The notes beneath the pieces are model-generated. The model was not told the origin of the DNA. It did not search any database and was given only the letters and a program-made list of their open reading frames with translations. Position numbers and translations under genes: made by a program. From an uncultured Gammaproteobacteria bacterium (GTDB lineage Bacteria; Patescibacteriota; Microgenomatia; UBA8517; JACQJR01), in contig CAYTZB010000002.1 in assembly GCA_964442455.1 (NCBI GenBank), positions 11,159 through 75,158 on the forward strand: a DNA stretch of 64,000 bases, written 5' to 3'. Shown here piece by piece: positions 404 to 40,730 of the stretch. Position 1 is the stretch's first letter; the number at the start of each line of letters is the position of its first letter.

Positions 404-1240
404 ATGAAGCAAGAAGCAGGAAAAGAACAACCAAAGCCAGAAGTAGTTCATATAGGCGAAAAGTTTTACCTTTTTGATCCAATCAGAACCGAGAGCGGAT
501 GGAATCCCCACTTTAACATAGTAAGATATGAATCGCGAATACTGCTAGAGACTAGGCTTAGGCTACCAATAGCAGCATATACTAGACCTACGTTTGATAT
601 TTTAAGATTGGAAGGTATAACACCGTATAACCCTGAGGCGGGTTACTCTATTTCTCAAACGGATTTTAATTGGGAAACTAGGATACGAAAACTAAAGCAA
701 CTTAGAGGTGAACTGGGAGATTTGAAGGTAGATTCTTCAAAAGCACCGTTAGCCATAATAATAGCGCACAACCCGCTAGAGGAACAAAGCATAGAATTAT
801 ACGATATTTCAAAGGGAGAAGAGATTCCTGATTTCACCGATATCGAACCATCAGATTTAATATCCAGAGTATTGGAGTATTCAACCTTACCCGAAGAAGA
901 ACGTAGGAGAGTTTTTAAGCATACATGGCACTATCCATTTAAAGCTGATGTAATAGAAGTATTAAAAAGATTGCATGTAGAGTTAATTTCTCCAGTTGGT
1001 CGTTTTGAGAGCAAACCATCTTTACGATCGCAAAAATCGGCAACTTTAGCATTTAACTGCTTTTATCCCTTTGGTAATCCACTTCCAGTAGAGGGCCACG
1101 ATTTAAAAGAGATGGGTCTAACTATGGAAGAGGGTTTCTATCTATGTGTGCCTTCCAATTTGGATCAGTTAAGCCAAATCCAAGCTCGATTTATCCTCGC
1201 TCCAGAAGAAGGCCAAGAAGCAAGACCTCCAGAACAGTAA
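404..1240 (+). CDS. hypothetical protein (278 aa)
   Basis: Long ATG-initiated ORF directly after gyrB. No recognisable motif. Confidence 0.5.
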   Translation: MKQEAGKEQPKPEVVHIGEKFYLFDPIRTESGWNPHFNIVRYESRILLETRLRLPIAAYTRPTFDILRLEGITPYNPEAGYSISQTDFNWETRIRKLKQLRGELGDLKVDSSKAPLAIIIAHNPLEEQSIELYDISKGEEIPDFTDIEPSDLISRVLEYSTLPEEERRRVFKHTWHYPFKADVIEVLKRLHVELISPVGRFESKPSLRSQKSATLAFNCFYPFGNPLPVEGHDLKEMGLTMEEGFYLCVPSNLDQLSQIQARFILAPEEGQEARPPEQ

Positions 1241-1291
1241 ACCTAATCCACCACCCATTTTAGTACTTGACACGGGGAACAAGAAACCACA

Positions 1292-1555
1292 ATGATAAAA
1301 ATAAGTATGGTTGAACGACTGGCAGAAGAATTAGCACAAGGGGTTATGGCCGAAGATAGGGTCCTAGGCGCAGCAGCATTTCCAAGAACTCTCGACGAAC
1401 TCTACACCATTCTAGAAGAAGAGGGGGTAGCTCCAGCAAAAACTCTTGAAGTTGTATGGAGATTATCCGAAAATGAAGTATTAGCATTAAGACCTAACGG
1501 TAAATTCCAAGCAATAGGAAACTATCCACACCAACTTTGGTTGATGAACGAGTGA
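1292..1555 (+). CDS. hypothetical protein (87 aa)
   Basis: Small ORF co-oriented with and 50 nt after the preceding ORF. TGA stop. Confidence 0.4.
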   Translation: MIKISMVERLAEELAQGVMAEDRVLGAAAFPRTLDELYTILEEEGVAPAKTLEVVWRLSENEVLALRPNGKFQAIGNYPHQLWLMNE

Positions 1556-1605
1556 AGTATGCTGCTTTACTTTGTGAAAAGCAGATGATATAGTTTTTTC
1601 TACTC

Positions 1606-3609
1606 ATGGTACAGTTTCTTTCGCAGTACACATTCCACATTGTTATCGCTGCCTCAGGAGCAGCGATTCTTTATGCAATTTATCTTATTACCCAAATTTT
1701 AAAACAACCTCGCGGAACTCCTGAAATGATTAACATTGCTGATGCAATAAACGTCGGAGCAGTCGCTTATCTGCGGCGTCAGTACAGTGTTGTTGCAGGC
1801 ATTGCACTTCTTCTGGCAGTACTCATTGCCTGGTTTCTTGGAATGCATGTCGCCGCAGGATTTCTTGTTGGCGCGCTGGCTTCAGCCGTCGCCGGAATTG
1901 TGGGAATGTACATTTCGGTGCGAGCAAACGTTCGCGTCGCAGAAACAGCCAAACAGGGACTCGCTCAAGCGCTTGACCTCTCATTTAAAGGCGGAGCGGT
2001 AACCGGACTTCTGGTTGCCGGACTAGCACTCTTGTCAGTCACCGGCACGTTCCTAGTAGCCCAGCAAAACCTTCCTTTATCGCAAACCTTAACAACCCTT
2101 ATTGGGCTTGGATTTGGTGGCTCGCTCATTTCGGTCTTCGCTCGACTGGGTGGAGGGATCTATACAAAAGCAGCTGACGTCGGAACGGATATGGTCGGGA
2201 AAATTGAACAGGGGATTCCCGAAGATGATCCTCGAAACCCAGGAGTTATCGCCGATCTAGTAGGCGATAATGTTGGAGATTGCGCAGGAATGGCAGCGGA
2301 TTTGTTTGAAACGTATGTTGTCACCGCAGTTGCGACAATGCTTCTTGGGTTTTTAAGCGGAAGAGGGGACGTCGCAATTATTTTCCCGCTCATTCTTGGT
2401 GCAGTAACACTTACTGCAACTATCATTGGTACCTTTTTTGTTAAACTACCACGCGGTGAGAGCATCATGGGAGCACTATACCAGGGGCTGGCTGCAACTG
2501 TTGTTATCAGCGCAATCCTCCTATACCCCATAACCCAGTTTTATCTTGGTACGAACTTATTCTTTGCTGTTCTTGTCGGATTTGGAGTAGCGCTTGCCAT
2601 GGTAGGAATCACCGAATTCTTTACTTCAAAGAAATTTGCAAGCATTAGGAATCTCGCGCAGGCGTCTGAAACCGGACACGCAACCAACATCATTGCAGGA
2701 CTCGCTCTATCGCTTCGGTCAACCTTTCCAGCAATTCTTGTTATTGGATTAGGAATTCTGCTTGCTTACCAGGTTGGAGGACTCTACGCTATAGCAATTG
2801 CGGCAGCAAGCATGCTATCGCTCACTGGTATCGTTGTTGCTATTGACGCATTCGGTCCCATTACCGACAACGCAGGTGGTATTGCTGAGATGGCAAATTT
2901 GCCCGAGAAAGCTAGAAAAGTAACTGATGCACTCGATGCTGTAGGAAACACTACAAAAGCAGTTACTAAAGCGTATGCAATCGCCTCAGCAGGCCTTGCA
3001 GCACTCGTACTTTTTGCGTCCTACATCCAAGAATTAGGGGAGAATAGCCCGATAATCTTTTCTCTCTCTTCACCGTCGGTTCTGGTCGGGCTCTTTCTTG
3101 GGGGAGCACTCCCGTACCTTTTTGCAAGTTTTGCTCTGGAGGCAGTAGGGAAAACAGCAGGAAGTTTAGTTGAGGAAATTCGGCGGCAATTTAAGACCAT
3201 CAAAGGGATAATGGAAGGCAAAACTCGTCCCCAATATGACCGATGTGTTGATGTGGTTACCAAGGGAGCTTTGAAAGAGATGGTTATCCCAGCCCTATTA
3301 CCTGTACTTGTGCCAATTATCGTTGCATTCACTCTTGGAGCTCAAGCACTCGGTGGACTTCTCATAGGGACAATTATTACCGGACTCTTTGTTGCTCTTT
3401 CGATGACGACCGGTGGAGCAGCCTGGGATAACGCAAAAAAATATATTGAAGAGGGACACTTTGGTGGAAAAGGAAGCTTTGCTCATCAAGCAGCAGTAAC
3501 GGGCGATACCGTCGGCGACCCCTATAAAGACACCGCCGGGCCTGCCATAAACCCCATGATTAAGGTTGTAAACATTGTCGCTTTGCTTATTGCCCCGTTA
3601 TTGGCATAA
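1606..3609 (+). CDS. hppA: membrane-bound H+/Na+-translocating pyrophosphatase
   Basis: 667-aa polytopic membrane protein carrying the H+-PPase signature motifs [17 protein letters not shown] and [17 protein letters not shown]. Confidence 0.93.
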
Positions 3610-3631
3610 GTTTCCCAGGGCCACAAGAGCG

Positions 3632-3660
3632 TTGTATTTTGCTTCAAAATCTCGTATAAT
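3632..3660 (+). promoter_or_regulatory. sigma-70-like promoter (TTGTAT, 17-nt spacer, TATAAT) upstream of the gyrA leader
   Basis: ttgtat at 3632-3637, a 17-nt spacer, tataat at 3655-3660. Confidence 0.4.
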
Positions 3661-3677
3661 TATACAGTTTCAGCCTC

Positions 3678-3779
3678 ATGGATATAGGTAAAATTCAACC
3701 AGTTGAGATAAAACACAGTATAAGAAATAATCCAGGATTTAGCGCGCGAGGCGAACTTTGTAAGAAGCGAAGGTAACCC
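3678..3779 (+). CDS. 33-aa leader ORF whose first 11 codons duplicate the gyrA N-terminus ([11 protein letters not shown])
   Basis: atggatataggtaaaattcaaccagttgagataa at 3678-3711 matches the gyrA start at 3947-3980 in 33 of 34 nt. The ORF then diverges and stops at taa 3777-3779. Confidence 0.4.
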
Positions 3780-3885
3780 TTTCGAAAAATGTGTCGAGTC
3801 GTACGAAGAATGAGGTAGGAAGTTCTAATAAGGGATTCCGTATGATGAGACGCAAGCGAGGAGTGGATTATTACACTCGAACTAC

Positions 3886-3908
3886 CGCTCTATACGACGA
3901 GCGTTTTT
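3886..3908 (+). terminator. intrinsic-terminator-like hairpin (CGCTC-tatacga-GAGCG followed by TTTTT) inside the gyrA leader
   Basis: A perfect 5-bp stem with a 7-nt loop, followed by ttttt, located 40 nt upstream of the gyrA ATG. Confidence 0.45.
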
Positions 3909-3946
3909 GAGAAAGGTGTTTCCGAAGCTTAACATAAATAACAAAG

Positions 3947-6535
3947 ATGGACATAGGTAAAATTCAACCAGTTGAGATAACAGAAGAACTTCAAAAGTCG
4001 TACCTCGACTACGCAATGTCGGTCATTGTTGCGCGCGCGTTGCCTGATGTGCGCGATGGACTAAAACCCGTACACCGTCGAATCTTGTACGCAATGCACC
4101 GTCTGGGACTGCGGCCGGGCGGGGGATTCACAAAATCAGCAAAAGTAGTAGGAGAGGTATTAGGAAAGTATCATCCTCATGGTGACATGCCGGTATACGA
4201 CGCTCTCGTCAGGCTTGCTCAAGACTTCTCCATGCGCTATCCGCTGGTTTCGGGACAAGGAAACTTTGGTTCAGTTGATGGGGACCCTCCTGCTGCCATG
4301 CGTTATACCGAAGTGCGTCTCGCATCAGCGGCAAATGCGATGCTAGCGGACTTGGACAGCGACACGGTCGACTGGCTTGATAACTTCGATACGACGCTTA
4401 AAGAGCCCGTTTATTTGCCTGCAAAACTACCAAACCTTCTGCTCGCGGGTGCGGACGGCATTGCGGTCGGAATGGCAACCAAAATTCCGCCTCATAATCT
4501 TCGAGAGGTCGTAAAAGCCGCTCTTGCCACGATTGCACGAGGAACACTAACTCCGGTAGAGAACGGCGAAGAACCACTCGCAACCTTCACCCTAAAAAGA
4601 ATTGAACTCGCGGTAAAAGAAAACCAAGAAAGCGATGATATTCCTATTCCAAAGCTCCAGTTTGCCTCCGAGATTACCACAGAAGAGCTTATTACCCACA
4701 TTCCTGGTCCTGATTTCCCCACGGGAGGCGCAATCTACGACGCGCACTCCCTTATCGAAATGTACGGGAGCGGCCGAGGCAAGATTACCGTTCGTGGAAT
4801 AGCAAAAATTGAGGAAGGAAAGGGAGGAAAACAGCGAATTGTCGTGACAGAGATCCCTTATCAAGTGAATAAAGCACAGCTGGTCGCTCGTATTGCACAA
4901 CTAGCACGCGATAAGAAAATTCAGGGAATCTCGGACATTAGGGATGAGTCTGACAGGGCAGGGATGTCAATTGTTATAGAACTTCGACGTGACGCAAAAC
5001 CCAAGGCAGTGCTCAATAATCTCTATAAACATACCACACTTCAAACAAGCTTTCCTGCAAATTTTGTCGCGTTGGTAGACGGAGTGCCTCATACCTTGGG
5101 TCTTAAACGTATTCTTACTGAATACATTGACCACAGACAGAGAATTATTGTACGACGTACGGTATTTGAACTGCGAGAAGCACGGCGTCGAGCACATATT
5201 TTGGAAGGCTTAAAAATCGCGCTTGATAACTTGGATGCAGTTATTGACACGATAAAGAAAGCGGCGGATGCAGATGAAGCAAAACAGAAATTAATGAGCC
5301 GCTTTGGGTTAACAGAAGTTCAAGCAACGGCAATTTTGGATATGCAACTGCGGCGCTTGGCTCGTCTTGAACGAGAAAAAATTGAGCAGGAATGGAAAGA
5401 ACTGCAGGAACTTATTAAAAAGCTAGAAGGAATTTTAACGACCCCCCAAAAAACACTCGACGTCCTGACTGACGAGCTAGAAGAGCTTGCAAAAGTATAC
5501 GGTGATATTCGGCGCACGAAAATCTATCAAACGAAACTGGGAGAATTCTCGCAAGAAGATTTGGTGGCAAAAGAGGAAACGCTCATCACATTGACTGCTG
5601 GCGGGTATATAAAGCGAGTTCCATTTTCTACCTATCGTCAACAAGCACGAGGCGGAAAGGGAGTAATGGGAACCGCAGTAAAACGTGAGGATGAAATCGT
5701 GCATCTCACCTCTGCCTCAACGCATGACCTCCTTCTCGTATTTACCGATAAGGGGCGAGTGTACGCAACTCCCGTGTGGGAAATTCCCGAAGGAAGCCGA
5801 CTCTCCCGAGGCCAAGCAATTATTAATTTAGTGAATCTTGAAGCTGAAGAAGCAATTCAAACAATCCTTCCTTTAACCAAAAATGGAGACACTAAGTTCC
5901 TCTTTATGGCAACCAAAGGGGGCGAGGTAAAAAAGACTGGAATTCTTAAGTTCGCAAACATTCGGGGACGAGGAATCGTAGCAATTAAACTAGACAAAAA
6001 TGACCGATTAGCATGGGTCAAGCCAACAACAGGGGAAGATGAAATTTTATTGGTTACACAAAAAGGGAAGGCAATCCGCTTTAAGGAGGCACAAATCAGA
6101 CCAACAGGACGTGCCACAATGGGAGTACGGGGGGTTAGGCTTGGAAAAGATGATTCTGTTATCGGAATGGAGGTAATTTACAAAAGAAAAGATGTTGATG
6201 GTCGGAAAAAACCATTCACTGACATTCTCGTGGTCACCGAACGGGGATTAGGGAAACGAACTCCTGTCAAGCTATTTCCGCTTCAAGGAAGGGGAGGAGT
6301 GGGAGTAAAAATTGCAAACATTAATAACAAAACTGGTAATATAATAGTGGCGCTCTTTGCGGTTGAAGATATAAAGCAAATCATTATTACCTCAAAAACA
6401 GGTCAAGTCATTAAATTGCCCATCAGAAATGTCCCTCAATTAGGACGGGCAACCCAGGGGGTAATCCTTATGCGGTTTACAAAAGAAGAAGATGGAGTTG
6501 CCGCAGTTGCAACAGTTGATGAGGGTGAAGAATAA
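3947..6535 (+). CDS. gyrA: DNA gyrase subunit A
   Basis: 862 aa. Contains [24 protein letters not shown], the active-site region and C-terminal beta-pinwheel repeats. Confidence 0.95.
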
Positions 6536-7301: not shown

Positions 7302-8240
7302 TCATTTATTCCCTCTATGAAACGCTTCGTGAACATCTCGTAACTGCTTATTAGTTACGTGGGTGTAGATTTGGGTTGTTGAGATGTTTTTGTGGCCGAG
7401 CATTTCTTGGACTGAGCGTAAATCTGCTCCTGCCATCAACAAATCGGTGGCAAACGAGTGTCGCAAGACGTGTGGCGTAGCCTCAACGGGCAATTTTATC
7501 TTACGAACATATTTCTTAATCATGCGTTGAATTGAACGGGGAGTCAGACGCATTGACTCGTCACTTCCTGTTACTTCCTTTTTGCCAGCATAGCGAATGA
7601 ATAATGGCTTATACGGATCATCGCGTGTGGCAAGATAATCGGCAATGTATTGTGCAGCACGCCTTGAAAGAAATACCACGCGGGGGCGCCTTCCTTTCCC
7701 AATAATCCCAAACTCTCGGGAATCAAGATCAAGTTTATCACGGTCAAGAGAGACAAGCTCAGACACACGAAGCCCAGTCGAGAATAAAAGTTCAAGGATT
7801 GCCTTGTCGCGTTTACCTTGTGGAGTCGACAAAGAAGGTGCAGAAAGTAGCCGCTCAACCTGTTCACCGTTCAAAAAATTCGGTGTATGCGCATCTGCCT
7901 TTGGCAAATCAAGCTTTTCAGGAGCAAGTGCTTCATGGTCATTTTTTCGAAGCCATTTTAAAAAAGCACGAAGTGCAATAATATGGTAACTTTGGGTTTT
8001 GCGAGAAAGGGGAGTGTTATGTGAGGTAAGACGAGAGAGGTAAACTCTGTATTGTCGCACACTTTCATTGTTGATATCACGCACGTTGGGCGCCGATTTC
8101 TGTTTCTCTAGCCACTCATAAAACCGCCGCAAATAATGGTTATAGTTACGGATGGTCAATGGCGAAACATTCCGCTCGATCTCTAAATACTCAAAGAACT
8201 GGTTAATGAGATTTTTGAGTTCCATCAGGCAGTTATACAT
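7302..8240 (-). CDS. tyrosine site-specific recombinase, XerC/XerD family
   Basis: C-terminal catalytic motifs HVLRHSFATDLLMAGADLRSVQEMLGHKNISTTQIYTHV, plus an N-terminal SAM-like domain. Confidence 0.85.
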   Translation of the reverse strand: MYNCLMELKNLINQFFEYLEIERNVSPLTIRNYNHYLRRFYEWLEKQKSAPNVRDINNESVRQYRVYLSRLTSHNTPLSRKTQSYHIIALRAFLKWLRKNDHEALAPEKLDLPKADAHTPNFLNGEQVERLLSAPSLSTPQGKRDKAILELLFSTGLRVSELVSLDRDKLDLDSREFGIIGKGRRPRVVFLSRRAAQYIADYLATRDDPYKPLFIRYAGKKEVTGSDESMRLTPRSIQRMIKKYVRKIKLPVEATPHVLRHSFATDLLMAGADLRSVQEMLGHKNISTTQIYTHVTNKQLRDVHEAFHRGNK

Positions 8241-18223: not shown

Positions 18224-19612
18224 TCAAAACTCGGTGCCGCTTGTAAAATTCCACCTTTTAATATGCAAAGCCGGCATGCGATTACTTCCGATTTCAAGTT
18301 CAAAACTAGAAAGCGGCACAGCAGTATTGGAAATTGCAGCAACACTGGACAACGCCTCCGGAATACTCTGATTAAAACGAAGATTTTTGACTCCACCAAC
18401 AATCTCTCCGTCCTTAATCAAAAACGTTCCATCTCGCGTCATACCGGTAATTGATAAATGCCTCGGATTCAAAACCCGCACATACCAAAACCGAGTTACA
18501 AGCAGTCCTTTTTTGACTCCCTTTATCATCTCTTCCATCCCCTTTTTACCCGGTTCTATTACTAAATGTAATGGCATCGGCCCACCTGTATTAGGTGCGG
18601 GCAACGCATGACCGGTATTAGGAGCGTCATGCTTCCCAGCATGGTAGGAGTCGTATACCAAATTTTTCAGCACTCCCTCTTTAATTATTTCGACTTTCCG
18701 CTTCGGAACTCCTTCAAAATCAAAAGGCATGGGAAATCCTTCCTCTGATATGGGATCGTCGTATATAGAAATGTTCTTACCTACCACCTTTTCGCCAAGA
18801 CGACCTGAAAAATAGCTTGCCTGCTCGTGATAAATTCGCGCATTTGGCCCAAGCCAAGCAAGAAATGCCATCATTTCATTCACTGCTTGAGGCTCAAGTA
18901 TGACATCCCACTCCCCGGGCTTAACTTCTAGCGGTTTCGTACCACGTTCAACTTTTTCTATTGCTTGTTGTGCAACATCCTCAGCGTTGATATCGGCAAC
19001 TTTTCTTCCTAATTGTGCACCAAATCCCGTTGAGTCTTTCCCAAGTAAAATTGTCGAAAGATCAGACGCAGAGCTCACATGATACGCCCATACACCATGA
19101 GAATTCGCCACTACTATCTCAGTTATCACGCTATCAAACGCGCCCGAAGCCGTAATCTTCTTTTCTCGTGCTTTTGTAATAATTGTTGACACCGCCGCTG
19201 CGCGCTCCTCTGGTGTTGCTTGGTGAACCCATTGTGCAACTTTTGGCAACTTTTGCGGCTTGGGTAAACTCTTAAAATGTGGATCTTCTCTTTGTAATTT
19301 TGCTAAACTTTCTGCTCGTCGCACAACATCACGAAGCGCAGAGGGCGCAAAACTATTTGTGGAGGCAACACCTATTCGTTTCCCAATCACCACACGCACA
19401 GAAATCCCTACATCTTCCCATGCAACATTTTGATGAATCTGAGAGTTCGCAAATCGGGTCAACCCATGATCCGTCACAAATAGCAAAACTTCTGTCTCAA
19501 GTTTACCTCTTCGAGCCTGAGCCTCAGAGCCGAAGGCCTGAGCTGGCCGAAGGGCACGCGATAAGCTCAAAACTTTCTTTGCAATTTCGTGTAATTTCTT
19601 TTCTCCAACCAT
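18224..19612 (-). CDS. pmbA: TldE/PmbA-family metalloprotease partner subunit
   Basis: 462 aa, TldD/PmbA fold, lacks the HExxxH motif. Pairs with the TldD gene at 20778-22325. Confidence 0.8.
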   Translation of the reverse strand: MVGEKKLHEIAKKVLSLSRALRPAQAFGSEAQARRGKLETEVLLFVTDHGLTRFANSQIHQNVAWEDVGISVRVVIGKRIGVASTNSFAPSALRDVVRRAESLAKLQREDPHFKSLPKPQKLPKVAQWVHQATPEERAAAVSTIITKAREKKITASGAFDSVITEIVVANSHGVWAYHVSSASDLSTILLGKDSTGFGAQLGRKVADINAEDVAQQAIEKVERGTKPLEVKPGEWDVILEPQAVNEMMAFLAWLGPNARIYHEQASYFSGRLGEKVVGKNISIYDDPISEEGFPMPFDFEGVPKRKVEIIKEGVLKNLVYDSYHAGKHDAPNTGHALPAPNTGGPMPLHLVIEPGKKGMEEMIKGVKKGLLVTRFWYVRVLNPRHLSITGMTRDGTFLIKDGEIVGGVKNLRFNQSIPEALSSVAAISNTAVPLSSFELEIGSNRMPALHIKRWNFTSGTEF

Positions 19613-19675: not shown

Positions 19676-20812
19676 ATGAGTACTGAAGCTTTAGGACCAT
19701 CAAAGCCCGAACAAGTCGGTAGGGAACAGCGCGCGTTACTCCCCCAGCAAAGACTACTGGAGGCAGTATTTAGTGAGCCACAACGACCAATTTCCCCTGA
19801 AAAGGGAGAAGAGCTGGCCGAGACTGTTTCTGAAGTTTTAACAAGTACACTCAGGCCACGAGAAGCTGAAGTAATTATCCGTAGATTTGGACTTGCAAGT
19901 GGCACACCAGAAACAATAGCTCAAATAGCTAATGACTTTCAAAGAACAAAAGGGCGCATACGACAAATAGAAGAACGCGCACTTCGTAGGCTACGTTCGC
20001 CAAACAATAGAGACAAATTAAAAGAATATGTTGTTTTGTCTGAAGGCCCTGTTGCCTTCTCAATTGCCGGGCTACAACTTACTTACAGTGATTTAAAAGC
20101 AGTTACCAATGCTCGTCTGGAGGAACTAGGACCAGCAATTCATCTTGCTCGGTATGTTGCCTCGAGGATGGATAGAGAATGGAAAGATGTCGGAGAGCTT
20201 TTGACAGAGAATAGAGAACCCTTTTTAAGGCATCTCTCTGCTGAACAATTAAAACATCTTGGAGATGAACTTCGAAAAGTTTATGAAAGAGCCCAAGCTG
20301 GTTTTTATAAGGAACAGGAAGTCGTCAATCGCTTTCTCCCTTATTTAGAAATAAAACCCGATGTACTTGCTTTAATAGCATCACGCCCCATTGAATCCCT
20401 TGATCTCCCGACAGACATAGGGGGTGATCTCAAGAGACATGGCATTAATACTATTGGTGAAGTTCTTAATAGACCTAAACTCGATTTCCTACGTAATAGC
20501 TGGATAGTGGAGGGGATGGAATGGAGGCTTAAAGCATACATCGAAGCAGTTGAATTCGAAATAAATCCTCCTCCAGAATCGGAGGCGTTTAAAACACTTG
20601 CTGGTATTTCTACGGTTTGGATTAATAAGATAGTGGGAACTCGAGTGAGTTATGCATTAGCTCGTGGAAATATCTATACAGTGGCGCAGGTGCTTAACAT
20701 GACTGAGAAAGAATTATTAAGGGTAAAAGGATTTGGCCAGAAATCTCTTAATGAACTGAAGGCTGCAATAATAAGACTTACCACTTCACAACCCCCACTT
20801 TCACCTTCCTAA
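19676..20812 (+). CDS. novel DNA-binding protein: sigma-70 region-4 domain fused to two RNA polymerase alpha-CTD-like helix-hairpin-helix domains
   Basis: TLRPREAEVIIRRFGL...TIAQIANDFQRTKGRIRQIEERALRRLRSP resembles sigma-70 region 4.2. DLKRHGINTIGEVL and RVSYALARGNIYTVAQVLNMTEKELLRVKGFGQKSLNELKAAI resemble the RpoA alpha-CTD. Confidence 0.6.
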   Translation: MSTEALGPSKPEQVGREQRALLPQQRLLEAVFSEPQRPISPEKGEELAETVSEVLTSTLRPREAEVIIRRFGLASGTPETIAQIANDFQRTKGRIRQIEERALRRLRSPNNRDKLKEYVVLSEGPVAFSIAGLQLTYSDLKAVTNARLEELGPAIHLARYVASRMDREWKDVGELLTENREPFLRHLSAEQLKHLGDELRKVYERAQAGFYKEQEVVNRFLPYLEIKPDVLALIASRPIESLDLPTDIGGDLKRHGINTIGEVLNRPKLDFLRNSWIVEGMEWRLKAYIEAVEFEINPPPESEAFKTLAGISTVWINKIVGTRVSYALARGNIYTVAQVLNMTEKELLRVKGFGQKSLNELKAAIIRLTTSQPPLSPS

Positions 20813-22325
20813 ATCTCGCGGGGCTGGCACCGTGGCCGGTATACATAACCTGTGAAGGTTGGCCTTTGCCACAGTTTGGAGTACCCCAGACAATCCATTC
20901 ATCTTTACCACAAATCGCATCGCACGAGCGCCAAAACTTTGGCGTCATTCCTTGATAGGTTGGATTCTTGAGAATCTTCCCTAACTTTCCATTCTTAATC
21001 TCCCACCCAATTTCTGTCCCAAACTGGAAATTAAGCCGCCTATCATCAATACTCCAGCTTTTGTTTGTTGACATAAAAACTCCCCGTTTGGTGTCGGCTA
21101 TCAAATCTTCCAACTTCCAGGCCGAAGGTCCTGAGCTTGCCGAAGGAGGCTCCAAATTTACATTTGTCATTCGAATTAAAGGAATATACTCCCACCCTGT
21201 TGCCCTCATTGTCCCGTTGCTTCTCCGCCTCGGCTCGCCGACGCGAGACGGGCCCTTTCTTGACTTTCTTAAAATCTTATCTAAATACACTGCTGTCTCA
21301 CGTGACGTCAGATAATCCATAAAGATTCCATTTTTTACTAAAAAGGTTCTTTGGGCAGGAACTCCTTCATCATCGTAACCAAACGTCCCAAGTCCTCCCG
21401 GGATCGTTGCGTCAGCCGTTAAATTGACAATACGCGAGCCATAGCGGAATTTTCCCAATTTCTCAGGAGTCAAGAAACTGGTTCCCGCATAGGATGCCTC
21501 GTAACCCAACACCCTATCAAGTTCTGCTGCATGCCCACAGCTCTCGTGAATTTGAAGAGCAAGTTGATTGCTATCCAAGATAATGTCGTATTCGCCGGTA
21601 GGACATAAGGGGGCGTCAAGAAGCTTTACCGCCTCCTCTCCTACTCGTGGTGCATTTCCCACCAAATCCAACTCCCACACGAGCTCATATCCACGCGTTG
21701 CAAATTGCCCTCCATGCGAATTTGGATAACTTCGGTTTTGAAAATCCCCTTCTCCTGTTGCTGAGGCCTCAAGCCCTGCGCCAGTCCAAACAATTTCCTG
21801 TTCAATAAGAGACCCGTTTGTTGACGCAAAGGTCTTGTGTTCACGATGGGCAGAAAATGAGGTTTGGGAAATTACAATTCTCGGGTCAACCCGCTGCGCG
21901 TTATCAGCTGCCAAAAGTAGTTCAAGTTTTTCCTCAAGAGGAACTTTAAAGGGGTCTTCTTTTATCGGAGTCCTGTAGGTCGCTTTAATGGGAGTCTGTC
22001 GTGCCAACTCAACATCCTCAAGCTTATGTCGGGCAGAACTTTCTGCAATCTCAACTGCTCGCTTGATCGTCCTTTCAATTCCTCGCTTTGTAAAGTCATT
22101 TGATCCAGCAAATCCCCATGCCCCATCTTTTAGAACTCTTATTCCATACCCAAGTGATGTAGAAGACTCAAGTGCTTCAACTACTCCATCTTTTGTAGCA
22201 ATATTTTGCGACTCTTTCTCAATAATCCGCACATCAGCGTAATCTACTTTAGGTATAAGTGAGACGATATTCTTCGCTTCTCGCTTCATGTGCTCAATTG
22301 TACCTAATTTATATTTGGAAAACAA
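20778..22325 (-). CDS. tldD: TldD-family zinc metalloprotease
   Basis: 515 aa with the HESCGHAAE (HExxxH) metal-binding motif. Its 3' end overlaps the preceding gene by 35 nt, convergently. Confidence 0.88.
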   Translation of the reverse strand: MFSKYKLGTIEHMKREAKNIVSLIPKVDYADVRIIEKESQNIATKDGVVEALESSTSLGYGIRVLKDGAWGFAGSNDFTKRGIERTIKRAVEIAESSARHKLEDVELARQTPIKATYRTPIKEDPFKVPLEEKLELLLAADNAQRVDPRIVISQTSFSAHREHKTFASTNGSLIEQEIVWTGAGLEASATGEGDFQNRSYPNSHGGQFATRGYELVWELDLVGNAPRVGEEAVKLLDAPLCPTGEYDIILDSNQLALQIHESCGHAAELDRVLGYEASYAGTSFLTPEKLGKFRYGSRIVNLTADATIPGGLGTFGYDDEGVPAQRTFLVKNGIFMDYLTSRETAVYLDKILRKSRKGPSRVGEPRRRSNGTMRATGWEYIPLIRMTNVNLEPPSASSGPSAWKLEDLIADTKRGVFMSTNKSWSIDDRRLNFQFGTEIGWEIKNGKLGKILKNPTYQGMTPKFWRSCDAICGKDEWIVWGTPNCGKGQPSQVMYTGHGASPARFRKVKVGVVKW

Positions 22326-39098: not shown

Positions 39099-40730
39099 TT
39101 AAAATTCCAGCCAATCTAAAATAATCTGGAGTAAACCCCGAGCAGTGCTTACCCCTTGCACTCCTGATGGAGGAGCTTGTGGTTGAGATTGCTGTTGCTG
39201 GGGCTGTTGATTTTGTTGATATTGCTGCTGTCCTTGCTCTCCAGAAGATCCACCTCCGCCATATTGTCCAACGTATGGAGCGCAGGCTGAATCTTTAGGG
39301 TTTGACTTACAATAAGATGTACAGGAAGCCTCATCCGTACATCCTCCGGGACCAGAAAATCCTCCTCCATATTGTCCAGCGTATTTAGCACATTCACTAT
39401 CCTTCGGATTACTTTTACAATACGATGTACATGAAGCTTCATCGCTACAACCACCGGGCCCGGAAATTCCTCCACCATATTGACTTGCCATCTGTTTACA
39501 AGCTTCATCTTGGGAATTGGCTGTGCAGTAGGCTTTACATGAGCTTTCCGAATTACAACCACCGGGCCCGGAAACCCCACCACCATACTGGCTTGAGTAT
39601 TTTTGACATTCAGAATCTTGAGAGTGTTCTTTACAATAGGCAGTACACGAACCAACGTCACTACACCCGCCCGGCCCGCTGAATCCGCCATATTGACCGC
39701 TATATTGTTTGCATTCTGCATCAGAAGGATTGGCCCGACAATAAGCTTCACAGGAACTTTCATCCTCACACCCCCCAGGCCCTTTAAAGCCTTCGTATTT
39801 ACTACTATACTTTTTACACTCCGGGTCAGAAGAGTTTTGTTTGCAGTAAGCACTACACGAGGCAATATCACTACATCCTCCAGGACCTTGGAAATCTACT
39901 TCTATTTCCTGATCATCTGCATAGTTTAAGCAGACTCTTTGATTATATGGTTGACTGCAGAAAGCTTGGCATTCTTGCTCTGTTTTACATCCTCCAGGAC
40001 CGGTTGAACCATACTGTCTGGCCAGCTCTGCCTCCTCTTCTGTAATAAATCCTAATGCTAAAGCCATATCAAGACACTCCTCCGAGTGTCCGGGGTCAGC
40101 ACAATACGCTTCACATGCTGTCTTCGAATCACACCCGCCAGCACTCTTGCCACTTCTAATAAGATCAACAAATCTTTGAGCTTCAGGTGATAGTTCTAAA
40201 GGTATACCAATTTGTTCTTGCCACGTTAAGCACTCTTGCCAGTTTCCTTCTAAAGAACAATAGATTTCACATTCATTCTCGCCGCGGCAATTCCCAGGGG
40301 GCAGTATGGCATCCTCCCCTTTCATACCGGCTGCTACTTGGCGAGCTTTTTGCAACTCATCAGGTGTTGCAAACCCGTTTTCTTCAGCAAAATCCAAACA
40401 CTGGTCTAGATTGGCATAATCATTACAAAATACCTCTACTGAACAACCCTCATCAGTTCTGCACCATCCAGGTCCTCCGGTTGTAGCCAGCTGGGTAAAT
40501 CTTTCTGCTCTATCAAGCTCTTCTTGAGTTACAAGGTTGTGTTCTTTGGCAAAGGGAAAACAGGGTGACATTTTATTTTCTGGTATATCACAGAAAGCCC
40601 GACACTCTGCTTCATCTTCACATCCTCCAAGCTCTGCCACAGGAAAAGTAATATCATCTCCTGATGAAGCATATACCATTCCGATTGTTAGGAAAAACAT
40701 AATAAAGGGCAGGAAAAGTAATTGTTTCAT
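39099..40730 (-). CDS. secreted cysteine-rich tandem-repeat protein (about 11 four-Cys modules, poly-Q tail)
   Basis: Signal peptide MKQLLFLPFIMFFLTIGMVYA. Six near-identical ~33-aa repeats GPGGC(S/T)DE(A/S)SC(T/E)AYC(K)xNxxDxEC(K)xYxxQYGGGxS, plus five degenerate N-terminal modules. C-terminal QQQYQQNQQPQQQQSQPQ. Confidence 0.7.
   Translation of the reverse strand: MKQLLFLPFIMFFLTIGMVYASSGDDITFPVAELGGCEDEAECRAFCDIPENKMSPCFPFAKEHNLVTQEELDRAERFTQLATTGGPGWCRTDEGCSVEVFCNDYANLDQCLDFAEENGFATPDELQKARQVAAGMKGEDAILPPGNCRGENECEIYCSLEGNWQECLTWQEQIGIPLELSPEAQRFVDLIRSGKSAGGCDSKTACEAYCADPGHSEECLDMALALGFITEEEAELARQYGSTGPGGCKTEQECQAFCSQPYNQRVCLNYADDQEIEVDFQGPGGCSDIASCSAYCKQNSSDPECKKYSSKYEGFKGPGGCEDESSCEAYCRANPSDAECKQYSGQYGGFSGPGGCSDVGSCTAYCKEHSQDSECQKYSSQYGGGVSGPGGCNSESSCKAYCTANSQDEACKQMASQYGGGISGPGGCSDEASCTSYCKSNPKDSECAKYAGQYGGGFSGPGGCTDEASCTSYCKSNPKDSACAPYVGQYGGGGSSGEQGQQQYQQNQQPQQQQSQPQAPPSGVQGVSTARGLLQIILDWLEF
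39290..39925 (-). repeat. ~100-nt coding tandem repeats (six copies) inside the Cys-rich gene
   Basis: The repeats generate several spurious overlapping ORFs in other frames (39149-39871, 39425-39682, 39603-39929). Confidence 0.65.

Follow-up and report, generated by a model that had tools for sequence, protein, structure and literature searches.

A strain-variable insertion at the start of gyrA in a Candidatus Microgenomates bacterium and its probable origin by import

Insertion with duplication at the 5′ end of a gene is an already known type of event. SXT/R391 elements integrate in the 5′ end of prfC, leaving the gene intact and direct repeats of its 5′ sequence on both sides (PMC2791158), and the insertion sequences IS1549 and IS1634 generate long and variable target duplications of 8–514 bp (PMC2266710). 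A topoisomerase subunit gene, phage T4 gene 60, carries a 50-nt mobile insert that is bypassed by ribosomes (10.1101/2022.08.31.505936). Homology-facilitated illegitimate recombination (HFIR) is a mechanism known from several bacteria (PMC3240628). Here, we describe the start of gyrA on a 64-kb stretch of DNA (64,000 nt of contig CAYTZB010000002.1; hereafter, the window), where genomes with GyrA proteins that are 95–99% identical carry three alleles at one site: an empty one (loci L092–L094), one longer by 74 bp (L004), and one longer by 269 bp (the window, L001, and L003). In our view, the locus probably owes its form to an insertion, variable between strains, within the first codons of gyrA of a Candidatus Microgenomates bacterium and not to a regulatory leader; the inserted DNA was probably imported, and a promoter-like site at its 3′ end, P2, would have taken over from the native promoter, P1.

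Each of these systems captures part of the locus. As with SXT/R391 in prfC, the insertion lies at the 5′ end of a housekeeping gene that is left intact, the gene start is repeated (34 nt in the window, 24 nt in L004), and the empty site exists (L092–L094); in contrast, the inserts measure merely 235 nt (window) and 50 nt (L004), are non-coding, and are devoid of an integrase, conjugation genes, and common attachment-site arms. The unusual and variable length of the direct repeats around the insert (24 and 34 nt) recalls IS1549 and IS1634, whereas inverted termini, a transposase remnant, and further copies are missing here. HFIR would account for a window insert with one junction in homology (gyrA) and the other non-homologous (+34), as well as for a short converted tract at the flank; however, its usual outcome as described is the replacement or deletion of recipient DNA and not a 34-nt duplication, and no donor was found here. 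The T4 gene 60 insert is likewise short, non-coding, located early in the coding region of a type II topoisomerase, and variable between relatives, and the upstream open reading frame (ORF) of L004 ends with CCA TAA at the junction, with a matching CCA 74 nt downstream. Yet no bypass is needed at gyrA, where a full ATG and N-terminus follow the insert and GyrA aligns from residue 1, and the parallel is an analogy only. Finally, the trpL, pheL, and hisL attenuators share with the window the order of promoter, short ORF, hairpin with U-run, and gene. Unlike them, the window lacks an antiterminator, a run of regulatory codons, and conservation, and its ORF is a by-product of the duplication of the gene's own start; a search of the literature for a leader peptide or attenuation at gyrA yielded nothing relevant. 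There is no evidence for a new mechanism. What is unusual is the combination of three alleles, a repeat anchored at the start codon, the probable promoter replacement of an essential gene, and a tract resembling co-conversion.

Alleles at the gyrA start

The best matches of the window GyrA are Candidatus Microgenomates proteins from groundwater, in the candidate phyla radiation (CPR/Patescibacteria), and the window organism is an uncultivated groundwater bacterium of Candidatus Microgenomates. Its GyrA is 95% identical to the proteins P0001 and P0122. The 90%-identity GyrA cluster consists of three full-length proteins, whose loci represent the three alleles. The order hppA–gyrA is kept in L004, L005, L010, L092, and L097.

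An earlier note on the window had drawn attention to a 34-nt segment at the gyrA start that occurs twice with a single mismatch, and the duplication is real, in the window and equally in L001 and L003. The repeat, ATGGA[T/C]ATAGGTAAAATTCAACCAGTTGAGATAA, is present as two direct copies (Table 1) with a spacing of 269 nt and a BLAST E value of about 1e-10. The copies agree at 33 of 34 positions, with an exactly common run of 28 nt; copy 1 reads ATGGATATAGGTAAAATTCAACCAGTTGAGATAA, and copy 2 differs by a C for T at base six. This is the sole close direct repeat of at least 18 nt in the window, a coding tandem repeat at 39253–39789 excepted, and no further repeats of the gyrA-start kind occur there. 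Two Logan assemblies built from other sequencing runs (L001 and L003) match the window base for base across the intergenic region, with both copies present, and L002, a Logan assembly that begins within the spacer and holds only copy 2 and the right junction, is identical over the intergenic part covered.

The closest relatives show how this region looks without the insertion. In three Hainich groundwater assemblies (L092, L093, and L094), whose GyrA is 95% identical to that of the window and 99% identical to that of L004, the same promoter and the same 17-nt 5′ untranslated region (UTR) lead to a single gyrA start: ...ccttgtatttttgcttcaaaatcctgtataattatacagtttcagcctc runs straight into ATGGACATAGGTAAAATTCAACCAGTTGAGATAACAG, with GAC as codon 2. 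In L004, the same promoter and UTR are followed by ATGGATATAGGTAAAATTCAACCA, a 24-nt copy of the gyrA start bearing GAT, then by a 50-nt spacer, and then by ATGGAC.... Its upstream ORF consists of eight codons (MDIGKIQP and a stop), and no terminator, promoter, or P2-like site is predicted in its 50-nt spacer. The window allele comprises the 34-nt copy and a 235-nt spacer, together 269 nt, with the junction sequences GAGATAAAACACAGTA and AACAAAGATGGACATAGG. The distance between hppA and gyrA is 71 nt in the empty allele, 145 nt in L004, and 337 nt in the window, and the insertions therefore amount to 74 nt and about 269 nt. The window sequence is also diverged, with small indels, in the part that precedes the −35 box. 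The second option of the earlier note, in which an insertion of ~270 bp left a scar and restored the gyrA 5′ end, finds support in the empty-site allele and in the exact length arithmetic.

In both insertion alleles, the duplicated segment opens with the A of the ATG, and codon 2 is GAT in copy 1 but GAC in copy 2; the window and L004 spacers, compared on either strand and up to both junctions, have no similarity. P1, the UTR, and copy 1 are 94–96% identical between the window and L092–L094 and L004, and P1 also resembles the promoters of L005, L007, and L010. The TTGTAT-17-TATAAT promoter proposed earlier is present and homologous to the gyrA promoter of relatives, although its −10 box lies 17 nt, not 18 nt, from the copy 1 ATG. 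Its score of 9/12 is at the level of the window's best promoters; the promoter-search tool left it unlisted, the −35 hexamer matching at only 3/6 positions. The more distant relatives (L005/L006, L007, L009, L010/L011, L097, and L098; GyrA identity of 64–77%) have one gyrA start behind a homologous TTGxxx-17-(G/A)TATAAT promoter. By sequence comparison, the duplication is a presence/absence polymorphism among very close genomes. Given the empty allele, and L004 with its 8-codon ORF and no terminator, the leader ORF and hairpin are not conserved. A metagenome scan with a promoter-plus-ATGGA pattern matched the Hainich empty-site contig only, and a scan of genome contigs with the GyrA N-terminus yielded, among the matches listed, only distant GyrA genes of at most 78% identity.

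Table 1. Features of the hppA–gyrA region in window coordinates
Feature	Position	Strand	Basis or remark
hppA (membrane pyrophosphatase), upstream neighbor of gyrA	1606–3609	+	PF03030 on identical product
Ancestral gyrA promoter P1: −35 TTGTAT (3632–3637), 17-nt spacer, −10 TATAAT (3655–3660)	3632–3660	+	Sequence
Ancestral 5′ UTR, tatacagtttcagcctc	3661–3677	+	Identical in the empty-site allele, where it adjoins the gyrA ATG
Copy 1, gyrA nt 1–34 as an orphaned duplicate, codon 2 GAT	3678–3711	+	
Upstream ORF, 32 codons and TAA (3774–3776)	3678–3776	+	
Promoter-like site TTGAGA-17-AATAAT, 10/12; −35 within copy 1, −10 within spacer	3703–3731	+	
Strain-specific spacer, 235 nt	3712–3946	+	
Terminator-like hairpin, CGCTC-8 nt-GAGCG then T5	3886–3908	+	Stem-loop 3886–3903, T5 3904–3908
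P2, promoter-like, TTGAGA-17-TAACAT; 11 nt between its end and the gyrA ATG	3907–3935	+	
Copy 2, true gyrA start, codon 2 GAC	3947–3980	+	N-terminus aligns with GyrA of relatives
Right-hand high-identity tract	3947–4029	+	2/83 mismatches to L004/L092, beside 26%-diverged gyrA
gyrA, 862 aa	3947–6535	+	PF00521 and PF03989

The interval between hppA and gyrA is an insertion hotspot in relatives. L005 carries at 3548–4000 (the same in L006) a GIY-YIG-like ORF remnant of about 300 nt between the inverted repeats tcattgcgag... and ...ctcgcaatga, and has a Y1 transposase gene downstream; in L009, a Y1 transposase gene at 1735–2382 is divergent from gyrA; and L010 has three small ORFs and an 84-nt GTAAC-rich hairpin leader at 595–3000. 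In L008 (GCA_016204955.1; GyrA identity of 77%), the contig starts 4 nt before the gyrA ATG, reading GATC followed directly by ATGGATATAGG, with a GAT codon, and the hppA contig of this genome was not found. The break could mean a similar repeat, or strain variation, at that position.

Recombination, probable import, and a putative second promoter

The window gyrA changes its affinities abruptly along its length. Compared with L004/L092, it has 2 mismatches in nt 1–83, 17–29 per 83 nt (about 26%) in nt 84–498, and about 7% from nt 499 onward; over nt 84–498, the window is as far from L004/L092 as from the 77% relative L008. The contrast between the first 83 nt and the rest has a Fisher P of 3.6e-6, or of about 0.007 after correction for 5′-end conservation with L008 as the yardstick. 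As read from these alignments, the gene is a three-part recombination mosaic. On the other side, the highly similar promoter, UTR, and copy 1 adjoin sequence that is diverged, namely, hppA and the 22 nt that follow its stop codon (78% nucleotide identity, 0.51 at 4-fold degenerate sites). From one neighboring gene to another, identity at 4-fold sites ranges from 0.51 to 0.85, and recombination mosaics are therefore common here. Taken across the insertion site, lineages whose flanks differ by 22–26% agree at about 97% of positions between −46 and +83, which points to a recent exchange of this block between lineages, independently of the flanks. The high-identity tract stops abruptly at +83, and the left junction at +34 has no homology to the spacer, a pattern compatible with HFIR although not exclusive to it.

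The 3′ end of the spacer is laid out like the start of an ordinary gene of this genome. The hairpin and its T5 run overlap a TTGAGA hexamer (3907–3912), followed by 17 nt, TAACAT (3930–3935), 11 nt, and the ATG. Such an arrangement is in keeping with the other genes of the window: a 9/12 promoter match within 60 nt of the start is found in 17.5% of window upstream regions and in only 3.5% of coding controls; start codons follow the best −10 boxes at 9–22 nt, and the distance of 11 nt recurs at hppA and two other window genes. A Shine–Dalgarno sequence, even a loose one, precedes 9 of 41 window genes. These features suggest that genes of this organism normally have very short leaders, and P2 is probably the working gyrA promoter of the window strain, with P1 and the first start left as an orphan.

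The account that we favor begins with an ancestral layout, still seen in the Hainich genomes, in which P1 and the 17-nt UTR directly precede the gyrA ATG. In the window lineage, 269 bp now lie between P1, the UTR, and copy 1 on the one side and a regenerated, intact gyrA start (copy 2) on the other. Recombination would import a gyrA 5′ end together with different upstream DNA, namely, the 235-nt spacer with its terminator and promoter, and the import would be joined illegitimately inside the resident gyrA at +34 and by homology further downstream. The repeat would begin at the ATG because the homology between donor and resident starts there. The whole block may then have moved between related lineages by homologous recombination, leaving behind the tract of −46 to +34 and +1 to +83, and L092 would be either the uninvaded allele or a revertant that arose through deletion between the repeats. 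P1 would now give rise to a short orphan transcript with a meaningless 32-codon ORF, ending at the hairpin or reading through it, and gyrA would be transcribed from P2 with the short leader and Shine–Dalgarno-less start that are usual in this organism.

Several points weigh against this account. We infer the import step, and a donor of the spacer was found nowhere; an L092-like donor of the gyrA 5′ end must moreover have had an upstream region unlike that of L092. The GAT/GAC pattern, common to alleles with unrelated spacers, needs an extra assumption, for which the candidates are a single origin with complete replacement of the spacer, two parallel events in residents that had GAT, or a GAT copy borne by an element. 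Conservation of the −46 to +83 tract could come partly from selection. P2 and the terminator are putative sites, consensus matches only, and in the region of 3400–4200 neither the promoter-like sites (that at 3703–3731 included) nor the terminator-like sites exceed the expectation from shuffles. L004 has no P2-like site, so its gyrA must be expressed in another way, and the L004 allele is known from a single assembly.

These results remove a tempting reading, leader-peptide control of gyrase, and document in its place a clean three-allele series (empty, +74 bp, and +269 bp). Should P2 be the promoter in use, gyrA would be under unrelated promoters in closely related strains. In model bacteria, stimulation of gyrA transcription by DNA relaxation is established, and the use of P2, if true, could change the supercoiling feedback that is normally built into gyrA promoters. 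The high-identity tract at the gyrA start provides a small but clear case of fine-scale recombination in CPR populations. On the practical side, duplications of start codons create spurious upstream ORFs, and contigs of metagenome-assembled genomes may break at them (for example, that of L008) or have their gene starts mis-called.

Alternative explanations

Foremost among the alternatives, and in our estimation unlikely, is that the insert is the remnant of a mobile or integrative element that targeted the gyrA start and later lost most of its length, so that 235 nt survive in the window and 50 nt in L004. Such an element may have used nt +1 to +24/34 of gyrA, with GAT, as its attachment site, integrating site-specifically or in the manner of Campbell, as do SXT/R391 elements in prfC; or it may have been an insertion sequence making long, variable target duplications, for which IS1549 and IS1634 set a precedent. 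An intact element would carry, as a candidate, ATGGATATAGGTAAAATTCAACC. In its favor, two genomes have direct repeats around unrelated inserts at one and the same site, and the empty site exists. If the element bore a GAT copy and the crossover fell in ATGGA, the codon 2 states (GAT in copy 1 and GAC in copy 2 of both alleles, GAC in the empty site) would be accounted for most economically, and the insertion hotspot described above for the hppA–gyrA interval of relatives also speaks for this reading.

The hallmarks of an element are nevertheless lacking in and around the spacer. The spacer and its bounds (3712–3946) contain no inverted repeat of at least 12 nt and no terminal inverted repeats, and no second copy of the spacer occurs in the window or in 98 fetched loci. 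The Pfam scan of window ORFs, which covered all those of at least 300 aa and a few smaller ones, returned housekeeping genes or no match, and neither a transposase, a homing endonuclease, an RNA-guided nuclease, nor an element-type integrase was among them. The sole recombinase among the scanned ORFs, an Xer-like tyrosine recombinase (7302–8240, −), is not located between the repeats, and its synteny with gyrA extends to relatives that have no duplication. The two spacers have no common end sequences, which would be expected of related remnants, and 50 nt and 235 nt are far below the size of elements in their own right. The spacer matched nothing in phage or plasmid collections, nor in six exact 21- to 24-mer scans of viral contigs, and scans confined to exact patterns and to a limited set of loci did not find it upstream of gyrA elsewhere.

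Other sources for the spacer were tried and rejected. It is not the product of a simple tandem duplication, the DNA before copy 2 being unrelated to that before copy 1. Nor is it a decayed coding fragment: it has stops in all six frames, its small ORFs and the upstream ORF have no Pfam match, and its 38-aa open frame has no homologue among 1.84 billion representative proteins. A 12-mer match between the L004 spacer and the gyrA 5′ end of L009 (1/500 shuffles) was dropped, equally good 12-mers arising by chance in BLAST (E ~0.9).

Less likely again, and quite speculative, is that the insertion alleles belong to an undescribed class of mini-cassettes in CPR bacteria, which would use the first 24–34 nt of gyrA as an attachment or homology site, bring a GAT-marked copy of the start, and swap the gyrase promoter, in the window for a module of terminator and promoter. 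Such a cassette would land between the native promoter and the gene and spread between lineages with short co-converted flanks. If this were true, an essential supercoiling gene would be re-wired actively and recurrently at its start, and the site would be more than a scar left by one accident.

The reading first proposed for this region, a leader-peptide attenuator in which translation of a GyrA-mimicking ORF decides termination at the hairpin before gyrA, is very improbable and was not borne out. A promoter, a short ORF, a hairpin with a T5 run, and the gene do follow each other in the correct order, and the plus-strand leader is slightly more stably folded than its shuffles (z = −2.1 for 3668–3960, compared with −1.4 for 3738–3912 and −0.15 for the minus strand). 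The details, however, are unfavorable. The ORF exists, with 32 codons and a stop at 3774–3776 in place of the 33 aa and the end at 3779 first given; it is out of frame with gyrA (269 = 3 × 89 + 2), has no run of regulatory codons, and stops 110 nt upstream of the hairpin. The terminator-like hairpin is also where it was reported, with a loop of 8 nt and a distance of 38 nt, instead of 40 nt, from the end of T5 to the gyrA ATG, but its 5-bp stem is weak (−7.2 kcal/mol, z = −1.7), and 12 of 200 shuffles fold equally well.

Mutually exclusive terminator and antiterminator folds, as an attenuator would have, are not predicted either. With ViennaRNA, the pair probabilities of the 3886–3903 stem are 0.87–0.99 in the full leader and 0.90–0.98 when 3678–3790 is forced single-stranded in imitation of ribosome occupancy, and no competing helix is predicted; the hairpin is thus predicted to form in every leader context considered. 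Since it does so with or without the ORF region blocked, the attenuator reading fails. The closest relatives point the same way: L092–L094 lack the duplication and have no compensating structure in its stead, and the other insertion allele (L004) has a far shorter ORF of eight codons and no terminator.

Slightly less credible still is that the spacer is a small-RNA gene (~3738–3908), running from TTGAGA-17-AATAAT to the hairpin and perhaps guide-like, with a 5′ flank that matches the gyrA start in the sense direction, in the manner of the omega RNAs of the transposon-encoded nucleases IscB/TnpB. The promoter-like site matches at 10/12 positions, the terminator-like hairpin follows 170 nt downstream, and 3785–3930 has modest structure (z = −2.2 against shuffles), whereas the putative transcript as a whole reaches only the −1.4 given above. 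Rfam offers no family for it. At gathering thresholds, the whole window gave one tRNA only, and at E ≤ 10, the region of 3550–4050 gave one chance-level snoRNA match only, with no family, HEARO (the IscB omega RNA family) included, for the spacer. The spacer has no homologue and therefore no support from covariation; it is absent from close relatives; and no IscB, TnpB, Cas, or other effector was found among the scanned ORFs. A transcription start site near 3738 would fall downstream of the gyrA-identical 34 nt and exclude them from the RNA. A guide RNA composed of promoter, 34 nt, scaffold, and terminator was rejected for the same reason, as well as for the lack of a scaffold family and an effector.

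Finally, an assembly artefact, in which two strain variants were joined chimerically at a common k-mer, might be suspected when all data are metagenome assemblies and the L008 contig breaks 4 nt before the gyrA ATG, but it is barely credible, since the same structure recurs in assemblies of other runs (both junctions identical in the window, L001, and L003; the right junction in L002), the exactly common 28 nt are shorter than typical assembly k-mers, and a different allele of the same kind (L004) comes from an unrelated sample.

Neighboring genes and other observations in the window

Downstream of gyrA, the Xer-like recombinase gene recurs close 3′ of gyrA in L004, L005, L007, L009, L010, and L092 (7347–8270 in L092). 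It is absent from L093, though L093 and L092 encode identical GyrA proteins. Upstream, a 278-aa ORF without Pfam match (404–1240, +) lies between the 3′ end of gyrB (56–376) and an 87-aa ORF. L004 and L092 lack this ORF of 278 aa, and its two neighbors are about 65 nt apart there; it represents a second strain-specific indel, 2.4 kb upstream of that at gyrA.

Farther away, 19676–20812 (+) encodes a 378-aa protein that combines sigma-70 region 4 (residues 58–107) with an RNA polymerase alpha C-terminal domain (residues 323–364), and PmbA/TldD metallopeptidase genes lie on either side (18224–19612 and 20778–22325). The coding tandem repeat at 39253–39789 consists of four 108-nt copies, 62–75% identical, inside a 543-aa ORF without Pfam match (39099–40730, −).

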